DNA from: Candidatus Saccharimonadota bacterium
GTDB lineage: Bacteria > Patescibacteriota > Saccharimonadia > Saccharimonadales > Saccharimonadaceae
Direction of reading: 5' to 3'
NCBI GenBank assembly: GCA_000503915.1
Contig: CP006915.1
Span: forward strand, 600,001-632,000
DNA: 32,000 nt
The translations under genes were made by a program, and so were the position numbers. This document shows, piece by piece, positions 5,045-29,585 of this stretch; position 1 is the stretch's first letter; the number at the start of each line of letters is the position of its first letter. Under the pieces are notes generated by a model. The model saw nothing but the letters and a program-made list of their open reading frames with translations. It did not search any database and was not told where the DNA came from.

Positions 5045-6679
5045 ATGATCGCTGATATTTCTGTGACCGAAAAATCATTCGGCTCTAAGGTCTTAATGTT
5101 CGGGGTTAAGTTTTCAGTGGATGCCAAAGAAAAAGTCGGCGTGATTGGACGTAATGGCGTCGGTAAAAGTACGCTATTTACTATCTTGACCGGTAAAGAC
5201 ACCGATTTTACTGGTGAAGTCATCTACCGGCGCGGCACCGTCGTCGCCAGTACCGAGCAGGAGCATCATGCCATCGGCGATACGACGGTACTGCAGTATG
5301 TTCTCGCCGGGCTGCCCGAATACAGCGAATTGAGCGATGTCATCGAAACCTATCCGTCCCATATGGGTGACGACATGAAGAAGATCGAAGTCTATACCCA
5401 GGCGCTGGAGCGTTTTGATCAAAAAGGCTTTTATCGGATTGAGGAAGCAATCGAGCGTGAGCTCGAGGCGTTTCAGCTGCCGGGCGTGGCACATGCGCCC
5501 TTCGCTTCCCTGTCGGGTGGTCAGAAACGATTAGTAGAAGTAGTTAAGATTATGCACGCTAAGGCAGATCTCGCCTTGCTCGACGAACCGACGAACCATA
5601 TGGACTACGTGGCGAAAAAACAGTTTATTGACTGGATGAAGGGCACGCCTGAAGCAATGCTTGTCATTACCCACGACCGCGATGTTCTCAGGCATGTTGA
5701 TCGGATTATCGAACTCAAGGATGGCGGCAGTGTTAGCTACAAAGGAAATTACGATGCATATTTAAAACAAAATGCTGCCAGTACCGGCAGCGCGATGAAT
5801 GAGTTTGAACTGATCGAAAAGCGCATCACCAACCTCAAGCAAAAAGTGATCGACTATCAGCGGCTCAAAGAAAAAGCGCGAAACCCGGCGACAATCCAGA
5901 AGTTCAAGCGCCTCGAACAAACCTCTCGAACAGAGCTTGCCGAGTTGCAAACCAAAGAAAAGCCGACCTTTTGGATTGATAAAGAGTCAGTCGATACCCT
6001 GCACTACAAGACAGCGAATCAATATGAAAAGTTCAAAGCCAAAAATATCCGCATGAACATCAAGGGCGAGCAGTCGCGTAGCAAGCATGTCCTTGTCAAG
6101 GCGGAAGCTCTCAGCTTGGGCTACAATAGTCCCCTGTTTGACGGGGTGAATATTGACCTGCGCGAAGGTGAAGCAGTCGAACTGCGCGGTCGTAATGGCA
6201 CGGGAAAGTCGACACTGATCAAGCGGCTACTCGGCGACGAATCAATCACGTTGTTTGGCGGCGAGCTTCAGCACGATCCGCAGGTGCGAATCGGTGTCTA
6301 CGAGCAGGAAGTTTCGCCGACCTATTTTACTCTTCCGCTCCACAATGCGATTGAACACCTGTATCTTGACCGTTCTCTGCCGATCAACGAGACAAAAATC
6401 CGCCAACTTATGAGCGAATATCTATTTACTGAGGGTGACGGCCAGGTACCGGTTAAGCGATTGTCGGGCGGACAGAAAGCCAGGCTACAGCTGATCGCTA
6501 TGTTGGCGAATGATCCGCAACTATTGATCCTTGACGAACCGACAAACCACCTTGATTTGCCGAGTATTGAGGAACTTGAGACGGCACTTGGTCGTTTCGG
6601 TGGTGCTATCTTGTATGTAAGTCACGATGATTATTTCCGCCGGGCAGTACCGGCGACAGTGGCGATGATCGGCGCTTAA
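5045..6679 (+). CDS. ABC-F family ATPase (two ABC domains, no transmembrane domain)
   Basis: Two Walker A sites (GRNGVGKST, GRNGTGKST), two signature motifs (LSGGQKRL, LSGGQKARL), and a charged inter-domain linker. TGcTATACT at 5027-5035 lies 9 nt upstream of the ATG. Confidence 0.9.
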   Translation: MIADISVTEKSFGSKVLMFGVKFSVDAKEKVGVIGRNGVGKSTLFTILTGKDTDFTGEVIYRRGTVVASTEQEHHAIGDTTVLQYVLAGLPEYSELSDVIETYPSHMGDDMKKIEVYTQALERFDQKGFYRIEEAIERELEAFQLPGVAHAPFASLSGGQKRLVEVVKIMHAKADLALLDEPTNHMDYVAKKQFIDWMKGTPEAMLVITHDRDVLRHVDRIIELKDGGSVSYKGNYDAYLKQNAASTGSAMNEFELIEKRITNLKQKVIDYQRLKEKARNPATIQKFKRLEQTSRTELAELQTKEKPTFWIDKESVDTLHYKTANQYEKFKAKNIRMNIKGEQSRSKHVLVKAEALSLGYNSPLFDGVNIDLREGEAVELRGRNGTGKSTLIKRLLGDESITLFGGELQHDPQVRIGVYEQEVSPTYFTLPLHNAIEHLYLDRSLPINETKIRQLMSEYLFTEGDGQVPVKRLSGGQKARLQLIAMLANDPQLLILDEPTNHLDLPSIEELETALGRFGGAILYVSHDDYFRRAVPATVAMIGA

Positions 6680-14309: not shown

Positions 14310-15341
14310 TTATAATCTAAGAATTTCACGAACTTCGGCGGTACTTTTTGTATGCATTAGTTTATCGCGCAGCTCCGCTGCACCCTCAAAGTCACGGACA
14401 TAAATCTTGAAGAAGCGTTTGAGCGGATCAAATTTGCGCGGATACTCTGGTGTATTCCACTGATCATGAAGATCAAGGTGGAAATATAATAGGTCGATAA
14501 GCATTTTTTTGTTCGCAGCTTTTCGACTACGTTCTATCGCAGAGGGCGCTTCGTCAGCTGAAGCTGACTGCACTACGCTTTTACCCTCTACTCCAGAAGT
14601 AGCCGAGCGCTGCTCTACCGCTTGGAAGCAGAATGGATTATGAAACACGCCGCGCCCTATCATGATGCCGTCAACGCCAGTTTCTCTCGCAAGCTGTTCG
14701 CCGTGCGCGCGGTCTTCGATATCGCCGTTGATTGTTAGGAGCGTCTTGGGTGCTATATTGTCGCGCAGCTGTTTGATTTCCGGGATAAGCTCCAGGTGTG
14801 CCGGGACTTTGCTCATCTCTTTTTTGGTACGCAGGTGGATCGTTAGATTGACAATATCTTGGTGAAGAAGATGTGCCAGCCAGTCCTGCCATTCGTCTAA
14901 CTGGCTGTAGCCGAGACGAGTTTTGACGCTGACCGGTAATCCGCTGGTCTTAGCGGCTTCAATCATTTCACTTGCCAGTTCCGGCGTACGGATCATGGCT
15001 GCTCCCCCACCGCTCTTGGTCGCGGAACTATCAGGGCAACCCATGTTGATATCAATGCCATCGTAGCCAAGCTCTTTGCAGTGTAGCGCTAGCTTTGCTA
15101 TCGCTTCGGGTTCTGCACCCCAAAGCTGTGCGATGATCGAATGTTCATCGTCAGTTTTGACGAGCCGCCCACCGATAGCCTTGTCGCCAGCGTGCGTCCA
15201 ACCGGTAGCATTGGTAAATTCAGTAAAATACAGATCTGGCGCGGAGGCTTTTGCTACCACGTGCCGAAAAACCACATCAGTTACTGCCTCCATCGGAGCC
15301 AAAATAAAGAAAGGTCGTGGTAAATCGCGCCAGATATTCAT
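14310..15341 (-). CDS. tRNA-dihydrouridine synthase (Dus family)
   Basis: FILAPMEAVTD, DINMGCPD (catalytic Cys) and a TIM-barrel pattern. Start placed at ATG 15341, because the upstream 30 codons overlap a better small ORF. Confidence 0.85.
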   Translation of the reverse strand: MNIWRDLPRPFFILAPMEAVTDVVFRHVVAKASAPDLYFTEFTNATGWTHAGDKAIGGRLVKTDDEHSIIAQLWGAEPEAIAKLALHCKELGYDGIDINMGCPDSSATKSGGGAAMIRTPELASEMIEAAKTSGLPVSVKTRLGYSQLDEWQDWLAHLLHQDIVNLTIHLRTKKEMSKVPAHLELIPEIKQLRDNIAPKTLLTINGDIEDRAHGEQLARETGVDGIMIGRGVFHNPFCFQAVEQRSATSGVEGKSVVQSASADEAPSAIERSRKAANKKMLIDLLYFHLDLHDQWNTPEYPRKFDPLKRFFKIYVRDFEGAAELRDKLMHTKSTAEVREILRL

Positions 15342-15351
15342 AGAAACAATA

Positions 15352-15531
15352 TTATTCAGCTGCCGGAATGATCTCGGCGCCGTCGCGCTCTTCCCCTTGA
15401 GATTTGTAGAGAATATCAAACAGCGCGGCATCGGAGAGTCCTTGAGCTACTTTTGGCGGCAGCTCAAACTTGAGGTCGCGCAAAACCTCGTCCTGAGTAT
15501 GAATAGCTAGTTGGTCGTGTACCATCGTCAT
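15352..15531 (-). CDS. Hypothetical 59-aa protein (below the ORF-track size cutoff)
   Basis: AAGGAG lies 10 nt upstream of ATG 15531. Product: MTMVHDQLAIHTQDEVLRDLKFELPPKVAQGLSDAALFDILYKSQGEERDGAEIIPAAE*. The stop lies 10 nt before the dus ATG. Confidence 0.5.
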   Translation of the reverse strand: MTMVHDQLAIHTQDEVLRDLKFELPPKVAQGLSDAALFDILYKSQGEERDGAEIIPAAE

Positions 15532-15652
15532 AGTGAGGAGACTCCTTTATGGTATTAAGACATGGGTTGAGTCTTCATAATATCATTTTTTTAGGCAAAA
15601 ATAAAACGCCTCACGCCGGACACGAATCATTATTCATATCGAGTGTGAGACG

Positions 15653-15666
15653 GACAGGAAATAGTG
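15653..15666. repeat. Left copy of a 14-bp perfect inverted repeat (GACAGGAAATAGTG)
   Basis: Exact reverse complement of 16247-16260. An imperfect extension, GTCTC, appears on both sides after a 1-2 nt offset. Confidence 0.8.
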
Positions 15667-15710: not shown

Positions 15711-15878
15711 TTACGACTTGGCGCGGCCGTGAATCTTCTGCTCGCCCTTGGACCAGTGGTCGTTGTTACGAACACCTTGGTCGCCACGGTTGTCGTCGAC
15801 CATCCGCTGTTCCTCCGGTGTTCGGGCGGACGGTCGCTTCTTGGCTGCATCGCGAGCATCTTGGATGCTGTACGCCAT
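15711..15878 (-). CDS. Hypothetical 55-aa hydrophilic protein with GC-rich codon usage
   Basis: ATG at 15878 is preceded by GAAAGGGTGA. Product: MAYSIQDARDAAKKRPSARTPEEQRMVDDNRGDQGVRNNDHWSKGEQKIHGRAKS*. Third codon positions are mostly G/C, unlike neighbouring genes. Confidence 0.5.
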   Translation of the reverse strand: MAYSIQDARDAAKKRPSARTPEEQRMVDDNRGDQGVRNNDHWSKGEQKIHGRAKS

Positions 15879-15897: not shown

Positions 15898-16157
15898 AAA
15901 ACTCACACGGACGATCCGCGTGAGGCATTGCTGATCAAGCTTGGGCTCCGACGGGCTTTGGGCTTCGGGGTTTCCCATAGCCCGTCGGAGCGGTCTAGCT
16001 GACGGACGAGCCCAGCGCGCAGCGGCAAACAGCCGAGCTCGCCCGTCAGGTCTTGGAGCGGAGCCACCGGACGCATCGCCGGTGGCTCCGCAGAGAAGCG
16101 GGTGTCGAGGGAGACGGGTGACCGATCCATTCCACGGCCATCTTTTACCCACTTCTC
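15898..16157 (-). ncRNA. Array of five consecutive long hairpins (structured RNA or leader) between the tRNA-like element and the small ORF
   Basis: Stems, in plus-strand coordinates: 16093-16103/16147-16157 (11 bp); 16058-16070/16079-16091 (13 bp, perfect); 15999-16011/16037-16049 (13 bp); 15946-15957/15979-15990 (12 bp, perfect); 15902-15910/15916-15924 (9 bp, followed by UUUU). Every non-Watson-Crick position is G-U on the minus strand and A-C on the plus strand. Confidence 0.45.
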
Positions 16158-16159
16158 GG

Positions 16160-16235
16160 TGGGACTGATAGGGTTCGAACCTACGACCTCCACCTAGTAG
16201 TGTGGGTGGTGCTCTTCCTCTTCGGCTACAGCCCC
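16160..16235 (-). tRNA. tRNA-like element, non-canonical; anticodon not assignable
   Basis: GGGGCTG-TA-GCCGAAGAGGAAGAGC-A-CCACC-CACACTACTA-GGTGG-AGGTC-GTAGG-TTCGAAC-CCTAT-CAGTCCC-A. It has a 7-bp acceptor stem, 5-bp anticodon stem, 5-bp T stem and a TTCGAAC T loop. The anticodon loop is 10 nt with no U33 context, the D stem has only 2 pairs, and no CCA is encoded. Confidence 0.6.
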
Positions 16236-16246
16236 TCTAGAGACTG

Positions 16247-16260
16247 CACTATTTCCTGTC
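16247..16260. repeat. Right copy of the 14-bp perfect inverted repeat (CACTATTTCCTGTC)
   Basis: Exact reverse complement of 15653-15666. Lies 11 nt upstream of the 5' end of the tRNA-like element. Confidence 0.8.
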
Positions 16261-16277: not shown

Positions 16278-16329
16278 GGAGCGCAGATACCAGCCTGCGA
16301 ATAAGTTCGTAGACTCCTATCCGCGCTCC
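16278..16329 (-). other. Leader hairpin (12-bp stem) between the promoter and the tRNA-like element
   Basis: The minus strand reads GGAGCGCGGATA...TATCTGCGCTCC, with one G-U that would be A-C on the plus strand. An inner CGAA-CTTA-TTCG hairpin is present. Confidence 0.55.
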
Positions 16330-16349
16330 GACCCGCCAAAAGTAGTATT

Positions 16350-16378
16350 ATTTTACTGCAATTGCGCGTATGTGTCAA
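16350..16378 (-). promoter_or_regulatory. Near-consensus sigma70 promoter (TTGACA, 17-nt spacer, TAAAAT)
   Basis: On the minus strand: TTGACA at 16378-16373, 17-nt spacer, TAAAAT at 16355-16350. It starts 1 nt after the helicase stop codon. Predicted start site is near 16343. Confidence 0.65.
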
Positions 16379-19788: not shown

Positions 19789-20277
19789 ATGAACGACAAT
19801 GTCTATGACGATATGGCACTCGAGCATATTGCCAAGGAGAAATTCGGCATGACCGTAGATATTGATCATGTGATCGCCCGCAATGTGCCGGTGAGTCATG
19901 TGGCGACAGCGACGCTTTTTTTAACGAGTAAGAAGCAGTTACTGCTCTATATCAACGCCCATTCCAAATTGCTCCTCGGTGATGTGAAAAAGATCGTGAC
20001 GCGCATGGGGTTGGTGCCAGAGCTATTTGTGCCACCAAAAGGTCAGCCGCAGTATTTTGATGAGATCGGTCGCGAACATTATAAAAAAGTATTTCCTGGC
20101 CTTTCACACCCGAGCAAAGAAGATATTATTTATTATCGTACGCTTGCACCGTACAACCCTGCCCTCGTGCAGATTGCCGAAGTTAAAAACGGCGAAGTCC
20201 GTCAGTTTGATACTGATGCTTCGAGCGGCTGGCGCGTAGCGACGAAATTTGCGTATCGGCGAATTAAGACAAGCTAA
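19789..20277 (+). CDS. Hypothetical protein (162 aa), family not recognised
   Basis: Clean ORF. Extended -10 TGaTACAAT (19774-19782) ends 6 nt before the ATG. Overlaps the convergent gene by 4 nt. Confidence 0.6.
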   Translation: MNDNVYDDMALEHIAKEKFGMTVDIDHVIARNVPVSHVATATLFLTSKKQLLLYINAHSKLLLGDVKKIVTRMGLVPELFVPPKGQPQYFDEIGREHYKKVFPGLSHPSKEDIIYYRTLAPYNPALVQIAEVKNGEVRQFDTDASSGWRVATKFAYRRIKTS

Positions 20278-21566
20278 ATCTTATCAAGTACGACGAGGTG
20301 TTCGATATGCGGCGTACACGGAAAAAAGTTGTAACCTTGGTGTGCGCGGATACCGTATTTTTCAGCGAGTAAGGCAACGTCACGGGCTTGAGTGACAGGA
20401 TTGCAGCTGAGGTAGATGATGCGTCCTGGCTGAACCTCAAGTAGACGGTCGATGACGGCTTGATGCAAACCAGCGCGGGGCGGGTCGAGAATAACGGTTG
20501 CGTCGCTGGTAAGGTATTCGACGGCCTGCTCACTGGCAGCATGAACCGCTACAGCGTTGCTACGAAGCGCAGCGATATTGCGCTTCATTTCGCGCACAGC
20601 ATGCTCGTCAACTTCGACCAGCGTCGTATGCTCGCTCCCTATCGTGAGGCCAATTGTACCAACACCACTGTACATATCAACCGTTGGCGTAGATGGCTCA
20701 AGCCAGGCTTTCATATCTTCAAGTGCTCGCTCATAGAGCGGGAGGTTCACCTGAAAGAACCCCTCGGTTGCGTAAGAGAACGCCACGCCGCGAATTTCAT
20801 CGTGTAACACCACGTCGCCGTAAGCGGCTAAACGCTTGGTGATACGACTTGCCGGGCTGCGCGGGTCGGAGTAGATGACTTCGCCACCTTGTGCTGGCAA
20901 TGTAGCCGCCTCCATTTCGCTGATATACGTTTTATCCTCTTCCTTGACGTAGAGCTGCCAGGCGCAGTTGCCCTCCCGGTCGCAGCGAATCAGGAGGGTC
21001 TTTAAATCGCGAGCTTCGAGTGGTTTAGTACGGAGTAGATTGCGAATAGCGCGAGCCAGTATATTGATTGTCTCGTGCGCCAGTGAAGTTCCTTCTAGCG
21101 GAATTTTCCCCTTACTACCGCGTCGAAAGAATGCAAGCTCCAGCTGCTCTGCTTCTCCGTCCCAGTACCAGCTAAACTCAACTTTGTTGCGGTACCCGAA
21201 CCGTCGGCCGTCGGTATAGACTTCGATTGCTTGAGGCAGAACAATATCATGCAACTCAAAGGCTTCTTCAATCAAGGCGGCTTTGTAGTGTGTTTCTGCT
21301 TCGGGTGTCATGATTTGCCACGGGCTGGTGGAAAGATAGCTTTCGGAATCTATTGGCGCAATACGTTCATCGCTCGGTATGGTCACATCGACGACAATTC
21401 CCTCGATAAGTTTTGAGCGTTTTTTAGTAATTTTAACTGCGACGGTTTCACTCGGCAGTCCGCCCCAGACAAATAATTTCCGACCATCAGGATACTGGCC
21501 GAGTGCTTGCCCGCCACCAACAATTTTGTCGAGCTTTGTCTCGACGATTTCATCTTGTTTACTCAT
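20274..21566 (-). CDS. RNA (uracil-5-)-methyltransferase, RlmD/TrmA family, with an N-terminal TRAM-like domain
   Basis: FFQVN, DPPRAGL (SAM motif IV), YLSCNPVTQARD (catalytic Cys) and a C-terminal FPCTPHIEHLVVL. Confidence 0.85.
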   Translation of the reverse strand: MSKQDEIVETKLDKIVGGGQALGQYPDGRKLFVWGGLPSETVAVKITKKRSKLIEGIVVDVTIPSDERIAPIDSESYLSTSPWQIMTPEAETHYKAALIEEAFELHDIVLPQAIEVYTDGRRFGYRNKVEFSWYWDGEAEQLELAFFRRGSKGKIPLEGTSLAHETINILARAIRNLLRTKPLEARDLKTLLIRCDREGNCAWQLYVKEEDKTYISEMEAATLPAQGGEVIYSDPRSPASRITKRLAAYGDVVLHDEIRGVAFSYATEGFFQVNLPLYERALEDMKAWLEPSTPTVDMYSGVGTIGLTIGSEHTTLVEVDEHAVREMKRNIAALRSNAVAVHAASEQAVEYLTSDATVILDPPRAGLHQAVIDRLLEVQPGRIIYLSCNPVTQARDVALLAEKYGIRAHQGYNFFPCTPHIEHLVVLDKI

Positions 21567-29510: not shown

Positions 29511-29585
29511 TGGCTGGGCCGGCAGGATTCGAACCTGCGAATGCCAGGACCAAAACCTGGTGCCTTACCACTTGGCCACGGCCCA
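29511..29585 (-). tRNA. tRNA-Gln (anticodon UUG), CCA encoded
   Basis: TGGGCCG-TG-GCCAAGTGGTAAGGC-A-CCAGG-TTTTGGT-CCTGG-CATTC-GCAGG-TTCGAAT-CCTGC-CGGCCCA-G-CCA. U1-A72 and G73 are as in bacterial tRNA-Gln. TGaTACAAT promoter element at 29643-29635. Confidence 0.93.

Follow-up and report, generated by a model that had tools for sequence, protein, structure and literature searches.

The spacer between an AddA-like gene and the gene of Dus in a Saccharibacterium raises the question of what a tRNA-shaped element does there when its anticodon loop has 10 nt. The window analysed, i.e. the whole stretch of 32,000 nucleotides, covers positions 600,001 to 632,000 of contig CP006915.1 (GenBank assembly GCA_000503915.1, Candidatus Saccharimonadota bacterium); all positions below are those of the window, and the element lies on its minus strand (Table 1). 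The element is one member of a lineage-wide, mostly non-decoding set of tRNA-shaped elements in the AddA-Dus spacer. It also appears to form an inner domain of a highly structured RNA of its own, the bounds of which were taken from predicted signals. Judged by which of its parts are conserved and which are free, a handle for processing by RNase P and RNase Z would fit the pattern best.

Read on the minus strand, the 5' half of the element is GGGGCUG-UA-GCCG-AAGAGGAA-GAGC-A-CCACC-CACACUACUA, and the 3' half is GGUGG-AGGUC-GUAGG-UUCGAAC-CCUAU-CAGUCCC-A, followed by CCG. The canonical parts listed in a preliminary description of this DNA were all present: an acceptor stem of 7 bp with a G4:U69 pair, an anticodon stem of 5 bp (CCACC/GGUGG), a variable loop of 5 nt (AGGUC), and a canonical T stem with the T loop UUCGAAC. 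The two irregularities it had pointed out were found as well. The anticodon loop CACACUACUA has 10 nt and no register yields U33 with a 7-nt loop, nor does the element contain a 7-nt loop with U33 and a purine at position 37 that defines an anticodon. Within the D stem only G10-C25 and C11-G24 pair, C12.A23 and G13.G22 being unpaired; the nucleotides A14, G18, G19 and A21 are retained. The statement that no CCA is encoded was correct for the full triplet, which is absent, but not for its first two bases, because C74 and C75 are encoded and only position 76 is a G. The G:U wobble is at 4:69 and not at 3:70, and identity elements for charging were not evident.

That the fold is not due to chance, as had been claimed, was confirmed by two programs. 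ARAGORN reported 16158-16235(-) as 'tRNA-???' with a 2-base 'anticodon', i.e. without a defined anticodon. The Rfam model RF00005 scored 42.2 bits (E 7e-6 for the window), which is above the gathering score of 29, and its alignment placed an insert in the anticodon loop and flagged two pairs of the D stem. For comparison, the tRNA-Gln of the window (29514-29585) scored 66.7 bits with the same model. The custom covariance model R1, described below, scored the element at 68 bits. The folding energy of the element alone was not significant (z = -0.88) and does not discriminate here. No tmRNA (transfer-messenger RNA) was found in the window by ARAGORN or as an Rfam match. RF00005 was the only Rfam family detected in the window (gathering and E-value thresholds) and in 11 related loci (gathering threshold), so no family besides tRNA was seen in the related spacers; weak matches to Rfam P17 were simply GC hairpins. 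An assembly artefact behind the 10-nt loop is unlikely because the Logan assembly of run SRR6486448 (L082), which may rest on the same reads, was 100% identical over 1200 nt, loop included. The window was also matched by GCA_003537595.1.

Species-representative genomes were scanned with Dus, and 80 Saccharibacteria loci were obtained. The gene order h162-AddA-spacer-Dus-atpC was conserved in nearly all of them, and the AddA-Dus spacer had a median length of ~950 nt. ARAGORN made tRNA-like calls in many of the related loci, all just upstream of Dus and on the same strand, with odd assignments (AAA, AAU, ACC, AGG, AUC, plus two- or four-base anticodons). Model R1 was built from an alignment (A1) of 26 elements, for which the acceptor and T stems served as selection criteria and the D and anticodon stems did not. 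A search with R1 gave 76 matches in 916 kb (81 sources), and 75 of these were located in the AddA-Dus spacer on the gene strand; the remaining match was the tRNA-Gln of the window. Altogether, 53 of the 80 species had at least one tRNA-like element in this spacer, with 0 to 6 copies per spacer (up to five by R1, the sixth by a simple scan).

The cloverleaf was 93.6% paired in A1, and 18 of 21 pairs had changed on both sides. Pairing amounted to 98% in the acceptor stem, 100% in the T stem and 96% in the D stem; the broken D stem of the window copy is unusual within the family in this alignment. Conservation was strongest in the acceptor and T arms, followed by the D arm, and the anticodon arm came last. 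Of 72 elements, 70 had the T-loop motif GTTYRA and 67 a GG in the region of the D loop. The anticodon 'loop' ranged from 0 to 76 nt across the set while the remaining cloverleaf was kept, which, together with the 10-nt loop of the window copy, upholds the earlier view that the latter does not look like a decoding tRNA. A nominal 7-nt loop was counted in 28 of 73 model matches (72 spacer elements and the window tRNA-Gln). Position 33 was C or A in many of the nominal 7-nt loops, or a C-G pair closed them to 5 nt; about a dozen elements looked canonical by inspection. GNRA tetraloops replaced the anticodon loop in L059 and L080, and more than 20 elements had hairpin extensions of 15-76 nt in the anticodon arm. 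In eight closely related 88-nt elements the extension hairpin changed solely through G.U wobbles. Introns in the long anticodon-arm inserts were considered and rejected, as inspection revealed no register that restores a canonical loop and group I introns are far longer than these inserts.

Position 74, the first after the discriminator (16159 in the window), was a C in 70 of 72 elements. Position 75 was a C in 22 of 72, and CCA was encoded in 7 of 72. Because C74 is kept while C75 and CCA are rare, the acceptor 3' end is under a specific constraint and does not carry a fading CCA. The acceptor-T half and the elbow are kept and the anticodon arm is dispensable, as in t-elements and mascRNA. 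Fold and position are conserved and the lesions are not scattered, which is not what is expected of a neutral pseudogene, with the caveat that detection bias and covariation of the parental tRNAs affect this comparison. The sequence supports the conclusion that the window element would be unable to decode codons.

The nearest homologues of the window element were those of L013 and L054. All three have the 3' end ACCG in common, the G4:U69 pair occurs in the window and L013 only, and relative to the window copy the stems of both homologues have undergone compensated changes. Their anticodon loops are CUAAUAC (L013) and UGUACC (L054). L084, the next relative with data, has the loop GCAGUCA and an acceptor stem different from that of the window copy. 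No tRNA-like element was present at the locus in the close relatives L085, L088 and L090, nor in L089, which was also fetched as a close relative to trace the 10-nt loop. Two patterns that describe the window-type element were run against metagenomes and gave no match.

A second tRNA-like type with a reduced D arm (GGGUGUGCCAGG...CGCGGGUUCGACUCCCGUCACAUCCACUG) was observed in L030, L038, L050, L058, L066, L077 and L081 at ~5806-5876 and was also listed for L024, L056 and L062. The lineages concerned are oral or animal-associated, and the element sits ~100-200 nt upstream of Dus; at these loci the leader motif AAAAGAAUCACA and a pair of small hairpins come before many of the elements. Anticodons with A34 (AAU, AGG, ACC, AAA, AUC, AAC) were assigned by tRNA finders to several elements, including L013 5349-5421, L055 5627-5699, L037, L035, L064 and L079.

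The RNA that is predicted to contain the window element is delimited by a promoter-like site 108 nt upstream of the element and a terminator 510 nt downstream of it, both of them predicted signals, and is closed by a long-range helix (P1) that spans the element. The RNA start is predicted near 16343, and TTGACA/TATAAT-like motifs occurred at the same place in 9 related loci and in both units of L013. By BLAST the sole widely conserved block of the spacer was the segment corresponding to window positions 15690-15565. The 16-spacer alignment (A2) showed that this block comprises the motif CACUAUU(U)CCUGUC, the intrinsic terminator and the extended -10 promoter. A simple terminator scan did not list this terminator because its hairpin is branched.

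Helix P1 has 14 bp in the window, and its 5' strand ends 11 nt upstream of the tRNA-like element. When the longest long-range helix of each spacer was searched for without bias, the P1 pair came out on top in about two dozen units, and P1 covaries in 27 units. Strand variants include GAGUAG/CUACUC, GGCACAGUGA/UCACUGUGCC, AAUGAU/AUCAUU and GACAAGAGAUAGUG/CACUAUCUCUUGUC, and an extra U specific to the 3' strand of the window has its counterpart in an additional A of the 5' strand. In an alignment of 20 sequences 94.6% of the cells were paired and 10 of 14 pairs had changed on both sides; none of 500 shuffles was as good, and slid registers reached 29-49%. The core of the displayed helices had no mismatch except G.U, and disagreements occurred only at the inner two positions. 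Three loci fetched later also had a P1-type helix, one of them a new variant. L013 contained two tandem units, each with its own promoter, self-consistent helix and terminator. Of 12 tRNA-like elements in helix-type loci, 11 lay inside the helix. The helix-closed RNA comprises ~600 nt in the window and 270-950 nt across the loci. Inverted repeats of the DNA, or an invertible segment, are disfavoured as an explanation of P1: imperfections of the core are strand-specific G.U pairs, the elements share one orientation, and no recombinase is encoded nearby, and for the first two reasons an RNA helix is favoured.

Directly ahead of the P1 5' strand there is often a copy of the core of the 3' strand, e.g. 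CUCCUGUC...GACAGGAG; such copies were seen in the window (16277-16251), L006, L013 unit 1 and L009. A local hairpin formed from the copied core could compete with P1, which may constitute a switch. A perfect 13-bp complement was also noted on the minus strand of the window between the predicted RNA start (16345-16333) and a stretch (15459-15447) inside the 59-codon open reading frame (ORF) in front of Dus. The maximum of 30 shuffles was 10 bp, and the complement was not conserved in 19 other loci.

Table 1. Features of the AddA-Dus spacer in the window
Feature	Position	Strand	Remarks and evidence
Sigma-70-like promoter TTGACA-17-TAAAAT	16350..16378	minus	11/12 matches; directly after the AddA-like stop codon
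5' leader hairpin GGAGCGCGGAUA...UAUCUGCGCUCC	16278..16329	minus	Sequence; equivalents precede the long-range helix in related loci
Long-range helix P1, 5' strand GACAGGAAAUAGUG	16247..16260	minus	Perfect complement of 15666-15653
tRNA-like element	16235->16160	minus	76 nt, 10-nt anticodon loop, weak D stem; ARAGORN, Rfam, custom model R1
GC-rich hairpin GGAGCCACCGG/CCGGUGGCUCC	16059..16091	minus	Sequence; related loci compared
Hairpin with 17-nt loop CUGUUUGCCGCUGCGCG (16032-16016)	16001..16048	minus	Same loop sequence in L013 and L084
Third GC-rich hairpin CUCCGACGGGCU/AGCCCGUCGGAG	15946..15992 (approximate)	minus	Sequence; related loci compared
55-codon ORF MAYSIQDARDAAKKRPSARTPEEQ...	15711..15878	minus	Shine-Dalgarno-like AAGGGUGAUC at 15890-15881
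GC hairpin after the ORF stop codon	15672..15709	minus	Sequence
Long-range helix P1, 3' strand CACUAUUUCCUGUC	15653..15666	minus	Covariation with the 5' strand
Intrinsic terminator CGUCUCACAC...GCGUGAGGCG + UUUUAUUUUU	15597..15652	minus	Alignment A2 of 16 spacers
Extended -10 promoter UGAUAUUAU for 59-codon ORF and Dus	~15583-15575	minus	Alignment A2
59-codon ORF between Dus promoter and Dus	15531-15352	minus	Ribosome-binding site AAAGGAG

The structured RNA that the preliminary description had placed downstream of the element is real; the small ORF, the minus strand and the membership in a lineage-wide set are additions to that description. The element is followed by three GC-rich hairpins, the 55-codon ORF and a further hairpin. 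The loop CUGUUUGCCGCUGCGCG of the second hairpin was 100% identical in three species, i.e. in the window, in L013 unit 2 (~5620-5636) and in L084 (338-354), while the stems were entirely different. A complement of this loop elsewhere in the window was not found. In each of the three species the CUGUUUGCCGCUGCGCG hairpin lies 180-285 nt downstream of a tRNA-like element. At the place matching the first hairpin, L013 unit 2 has a long GC hairpin of different sequence.

Relatives of the peptide encoded by the 55-codon ORF were found in the same spacer of L004, L011, L062, L063 and L080. Most spacers contained an ORF of 45-60 codons behind a near-perfect Shine-Dalgarno site GGAGGUGAU. The products are of two types, either a hydrophilic family of ~50 residues, which includes the window peptide, or Cys-rich CxxCxGxG peptides, which resemble DnaJ CXXCXGXG and anti-TRAP only faintly. 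They gave no Pfam or NCBIfam match; a large protein search was not made. Different types of small ORF occupy the same locus in different species. Some units had just an ORF, some just a tRNA-like element (L013 unit 2, L084), and others the two together; the frame is therefore constant and the cargo modular. The ORF-less units of L013 and L084 keep the tRNA-like element and the hairpin with the 17-nt loop.

On the minus strand an AddA-like UvrD-helicase/PD-(D/E)XK nuclease (19730-16380) is followed by ~950 nt without a large gene and then by Dus; beyond Dus are a pilin-like gene and the ATP synthase operon on the opposite strand. Among the ten neighbouring ORFs scanned, none was a Ro-type gene. 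Dus probably starts at 15341 (343 residues as in RAAC3_TM7_1) and not with the 373-codon ORF listed mechanically. Upstream ORFs comparable to the 59-codon ORF are also present in L013 and L084. Two tRNA-modification genes, a U5-methyltransferase-like gene (20274-21566) and Dus (14310-15431), flank the region within 6 kb, and this nearness may be incidental because the whole block is syntenic across the class. The Dus protein of the window is 100% identical to that of Candidatus Saccharibacteria RAAC3_TM7_1. The closed genome of the latter comprises 845 kb and is reported to have 43 tRNAs, with intergenic distances averaging 72 bp (PMC3812714), far less than the median of ~950 nt of the AddA-Dus spacer. 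A phage origin of the locus is without support because scans of viral contigs for the helix/terminator motif and for the T arm found nothing.

The reading that we prefer is that the element may be a non-decoding tRNA mimic which is read by RNase P and by 3'-end enzymes. In a tRNA, the half that RNase P, RNase Z and the CCA-adding enzyme recognise is the one made up of the acceptor stem and T arm. Cleavage at the ends of the element is proposed because this is the half that is constrained. RNase P would cut the 5' end at 16235/16236, and RNase Z or exonucleases, possibly together with the CCA-adding enzyme, would trim the 3' end at 16160/16159. These cuts would release a tRNA-like RNA of ~76 nt that could not decode and would split the carrier into a 5' piece with the leader, held to the 3' part solely by P1, and a 3' piece with the hairpins and the ORF. 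The purpose might be either the cut itself or the small RNA released.

Several points weigh against processing of this kind. The promoter, the terminator and the cleavage sites are all predictions, and about half of the helix-closed units are without a tRNA-like element, which means that the carrier RNA does not need one; for these two reasons our confidence stays slightly below the halfway mark. Some spacers have tight tandem arrays that resemble ordinary tRNA operons and include a few canonical-looking members with CCA (L054, L079). Much of the covariation may go back to the various tRNA types from which the elements descend (Pro-like, Val-like and others) and not have arisen after decoding was lost. 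Since only elements that still look like tRNAs are detectable, the picture is biased. The weakened D stem of the window copy could be decay starting. Finally, the base preceding the element was mostly A (43 of 72), which the RNase P of these bacteria may or may not prefer.

The pattern of conservation would be the same if the tRNA-like RNA, released or embedded, were itself the product, with the cut of the carrier being incidental. It would then be a decoy or sponge whose target protein binds the elbow or the acceptor end, or it might act as a scaffold. A tRNA-targeting toxin, a modification enzyme, EF-Tu and the CCA-adding enzyme are proposed as partners. The 0-6 copies per spacer and the fast turnover of content between species, which are typical of conflict-related loci, and ORF-less units that consist only of the tRNA-like element and hairpins would agree with such a role. 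Nevertheless, we regard it as fairly unlikely: no candidate partner is encoded nearby except Dus and the U5-methyltransferase-like gene, the elements are absent from a third of the species, and a decoy for an anticodon nuclease would require an anticodon loop. Moreover, the D loop of the window copy has no U, and the element therefore cannot be a D-loop substrate of Dus. This last point applies equally to a regulator linked to dus, in which Dus or another tRNA-binding protein would bind the mimic to control dus or the small ORF. Dus enzymes recognise tRNA architecture rather than the anticodon, which fits a mimic; the element is constantly adjacent to dus, and in the window the 13-bp complement joins the RNA start to the ORF in front of dus. 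However, the element is set apart from dus by a terminator and a second promoter, at a distance that ranges from ~100 to 1500 nt; in the window copy no part is weaker than the D stem, the 13-bp complement is specific to the window, and the whole trmA-addA-dus-atp region is syntenic anyway. Regulation of this type is considered improbable.

An unlikely origin, though one with several observations on its side, is the decay of a redundant tRNA copy, acquired by duplication or horizontal transfer, in a permissive, expressed spacer. The anticodon loop would have been lost first as mis-decoding is harmful, and the rest would be intact through recency or gene conversion. The elements resemble Pro-like (CGGGGUG...CCCCGA), Val-like and Gly-like tRNAs and therefore have several origins, and a few neighbours look fully canonical. 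The window copy combines two D-stem mismatches with a slippage-like CA/CUA repeat pattern in the loop, and elements are missing in many species, including the next-closest L085, L088 and L090. On the other hand, the lesions are concentrated in one loop and 42 stem positions stay paired, and the replacement of the loop by GNRA tetraloops and long, well-paired hairpins looks like remodelling rather than decay. Of the three CCA positions only C74 is kept, and location and strand are constant across a whole class. The window, L013 and L054 copies share their 3' end yet differ by compensated stem changes, and gene conversion would have restored the anticodon loop too. Parental-type covariation and detection bias weaken this argument against decay. 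Decoding of a non-canonical kind, by a frameshift or quadruplet reader or by a suppressor that uses one of two CUA triplets, has in its favour the complete cloverleaf, the score above the Rfam threshold and the occurrence of CUA twice in the loop. It is nevertheless very improbable, as a loop of 10 nt leaves no room for a U33 geometry, even the closest homologues (L013, L054, L084) have other loops, and the D stem is weak. The 3:70 G:U pair of alanine identity is absent from all 26 aligned elements, and the other synthetases whose tRNAs these elements resemble read the anticodon. Equally remote are an assembly artefact and a remnant of the site at which an integrative element was attached. Integration into tRNA genes is common and the loop resembles a small duplication, but the suggestion of the preliminary description that a decayed tRNA was left at an integration site was not supported: there is no integrase beside the element and no direct repeat of a tRNA 3' segment in the window, the composition across the window is flat without a break, the second assembly is identical in sequence, and tRNA-like elements, homologous ones among them, have the same position and orientation in 53 species.

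The proposed processing handle may be part of a wider arrangement, which is put forward tentatively as one possibility. The AddA-Dus spacer would then encode an as yet undescribed class of long modular RNAs (~300-950 nt) with a constant frame and exchangeable cargo, in which the tRNA mimic is functional and not a relic. The frame would consist of the promoter, the leader hairpin, a covarying long-range helix of 12-17 bp and the terminator. The cargo would be made up of tRNA mimics that do not decode, of hairpins whose loop is invariant (CUGUUUGCCGCUGCGCG) and of small ORFs preceded by very strong Shine-Dalgarno sites, and the tRNA mimic would act as the processing or partner-binding module of a dual-function RNA that is both coding and structured.

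Processing handles of this shape have counterparts elsewhere. The t-elements of plant mitochondria are cut by RNase P and RNase Z; like the present elements they are non-decoding tRNA-like folds, they are embedded in longer transcripts as is predicted here, and RNA ends are made at them (PMC3790967). In contrast to t-elements, the set described here belongs to a bacterium of the candidate phyla radiation (CPR), its cleavage is only predicted, and its cloverleaf is nearly complete, including the D arm; it is also confined to one fixed locus with 0-6 copies and, in one clade, lies inside a helix-closed RNA. A haloarchaeal t-element adjoins 5S rRNA. In the case of mascRNA and MALAT1, the long RNA matures through a cut by RNase P, and the small tRNA-like RNA is set free by RNase Z and CCA addition. 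The mascRNA/MALAT1 and MEN-beta modules (Rfam RF01684) likewise have conserved acceptor, T and D arms and a reduced, unconserved anticodon arm. However, mascRNA is vertebrate and nuclear, is located at the 3' end of a long RNA and has no sequence relationship to the window set. The bacterial Y RNA YrlA, which is non-coding, reportedly combines a terminal 5'/3' helix with a tRNA-mimicking domain that is accepted by tRNA enzymes. It differs in its length of ~100 nt, in adjoining rsr (Ro) and in its terminal helix being the Ro-binding site, whereas the terminal helix of the window type is far from the acceptor stem; there was also no Rfam Y RNA match, and the neighbours here are AddA-like, Dus, pilin-like and ATP synthase genes.

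Transfer-messenger RNA also unites a tRNA-like part and a short reading frame in one RNA with pairing ends. Its paired ends, however, are the acceptor stem and its frame has no start codon, whereas the window element is contiguous and the window ORF has its own Shine-Dalgarno site and ATG. In tRNA-mRNA co-transcripts such as tyrT-tpr and thrU-tyrU-glyT-thrT-tufB of E. coli the coding segment is separated by RNase P; the tRNAs of these transcripts decode, unlike most AddA-Dus elements. Expanded-loop tRNAs (frameshift suppressors, yeast mitochondrial tRNA-Thr with an 8-nt loop) share a loop of more than 7 nt in an otherwise normal cloverleaf. Their loops of 8-9 nt are conserved and functional, in contrast to the 10-nt loop of the window, which is not conserved among homologues.

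While tRNA mimics as processing modules are known already, a bacterial, class-wide version with a modular, helix-closed carrier RNA appears to be undescribed. Full-text literature searches gave no paper combining tRNA-like elements with Saccharibacteria, Patescibacteria or CPR, and the RAAC3 genome paper makes no mention of the element (PMC3812714). A non-coding locus of ~1 kb that is kept throughout the class is informative because the genomes of Saccharibacteria and other CPR bacteria are tiny and dense and, to our knowledge, almost nothing is known about their non-coding RNAs. The tRNA mimics at this locus have a decoding part that was either freed or remodelled. The spurious anticodons (AAA, AAU, ACC, AGG and others) reported by tRNA finders inflate or distort tRNA inventories of CPR and the conclusions on the genetic code drawn from these inventories. 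In genome annotations such elements would be counted as unusual tRNAs, and conclusions on decoding could be misled. If the processing reading is true, the elements would be a bacterial counterpart of t-elements and mascRNA, and tRNA genes would have been recruited repeatedly for a job outside translation. The locus would then provide a defined, testable RNA with a long-range helix, an invariant loop and a small ORF in organisms that have become accessible to genetic manipulation (PMC10633639).

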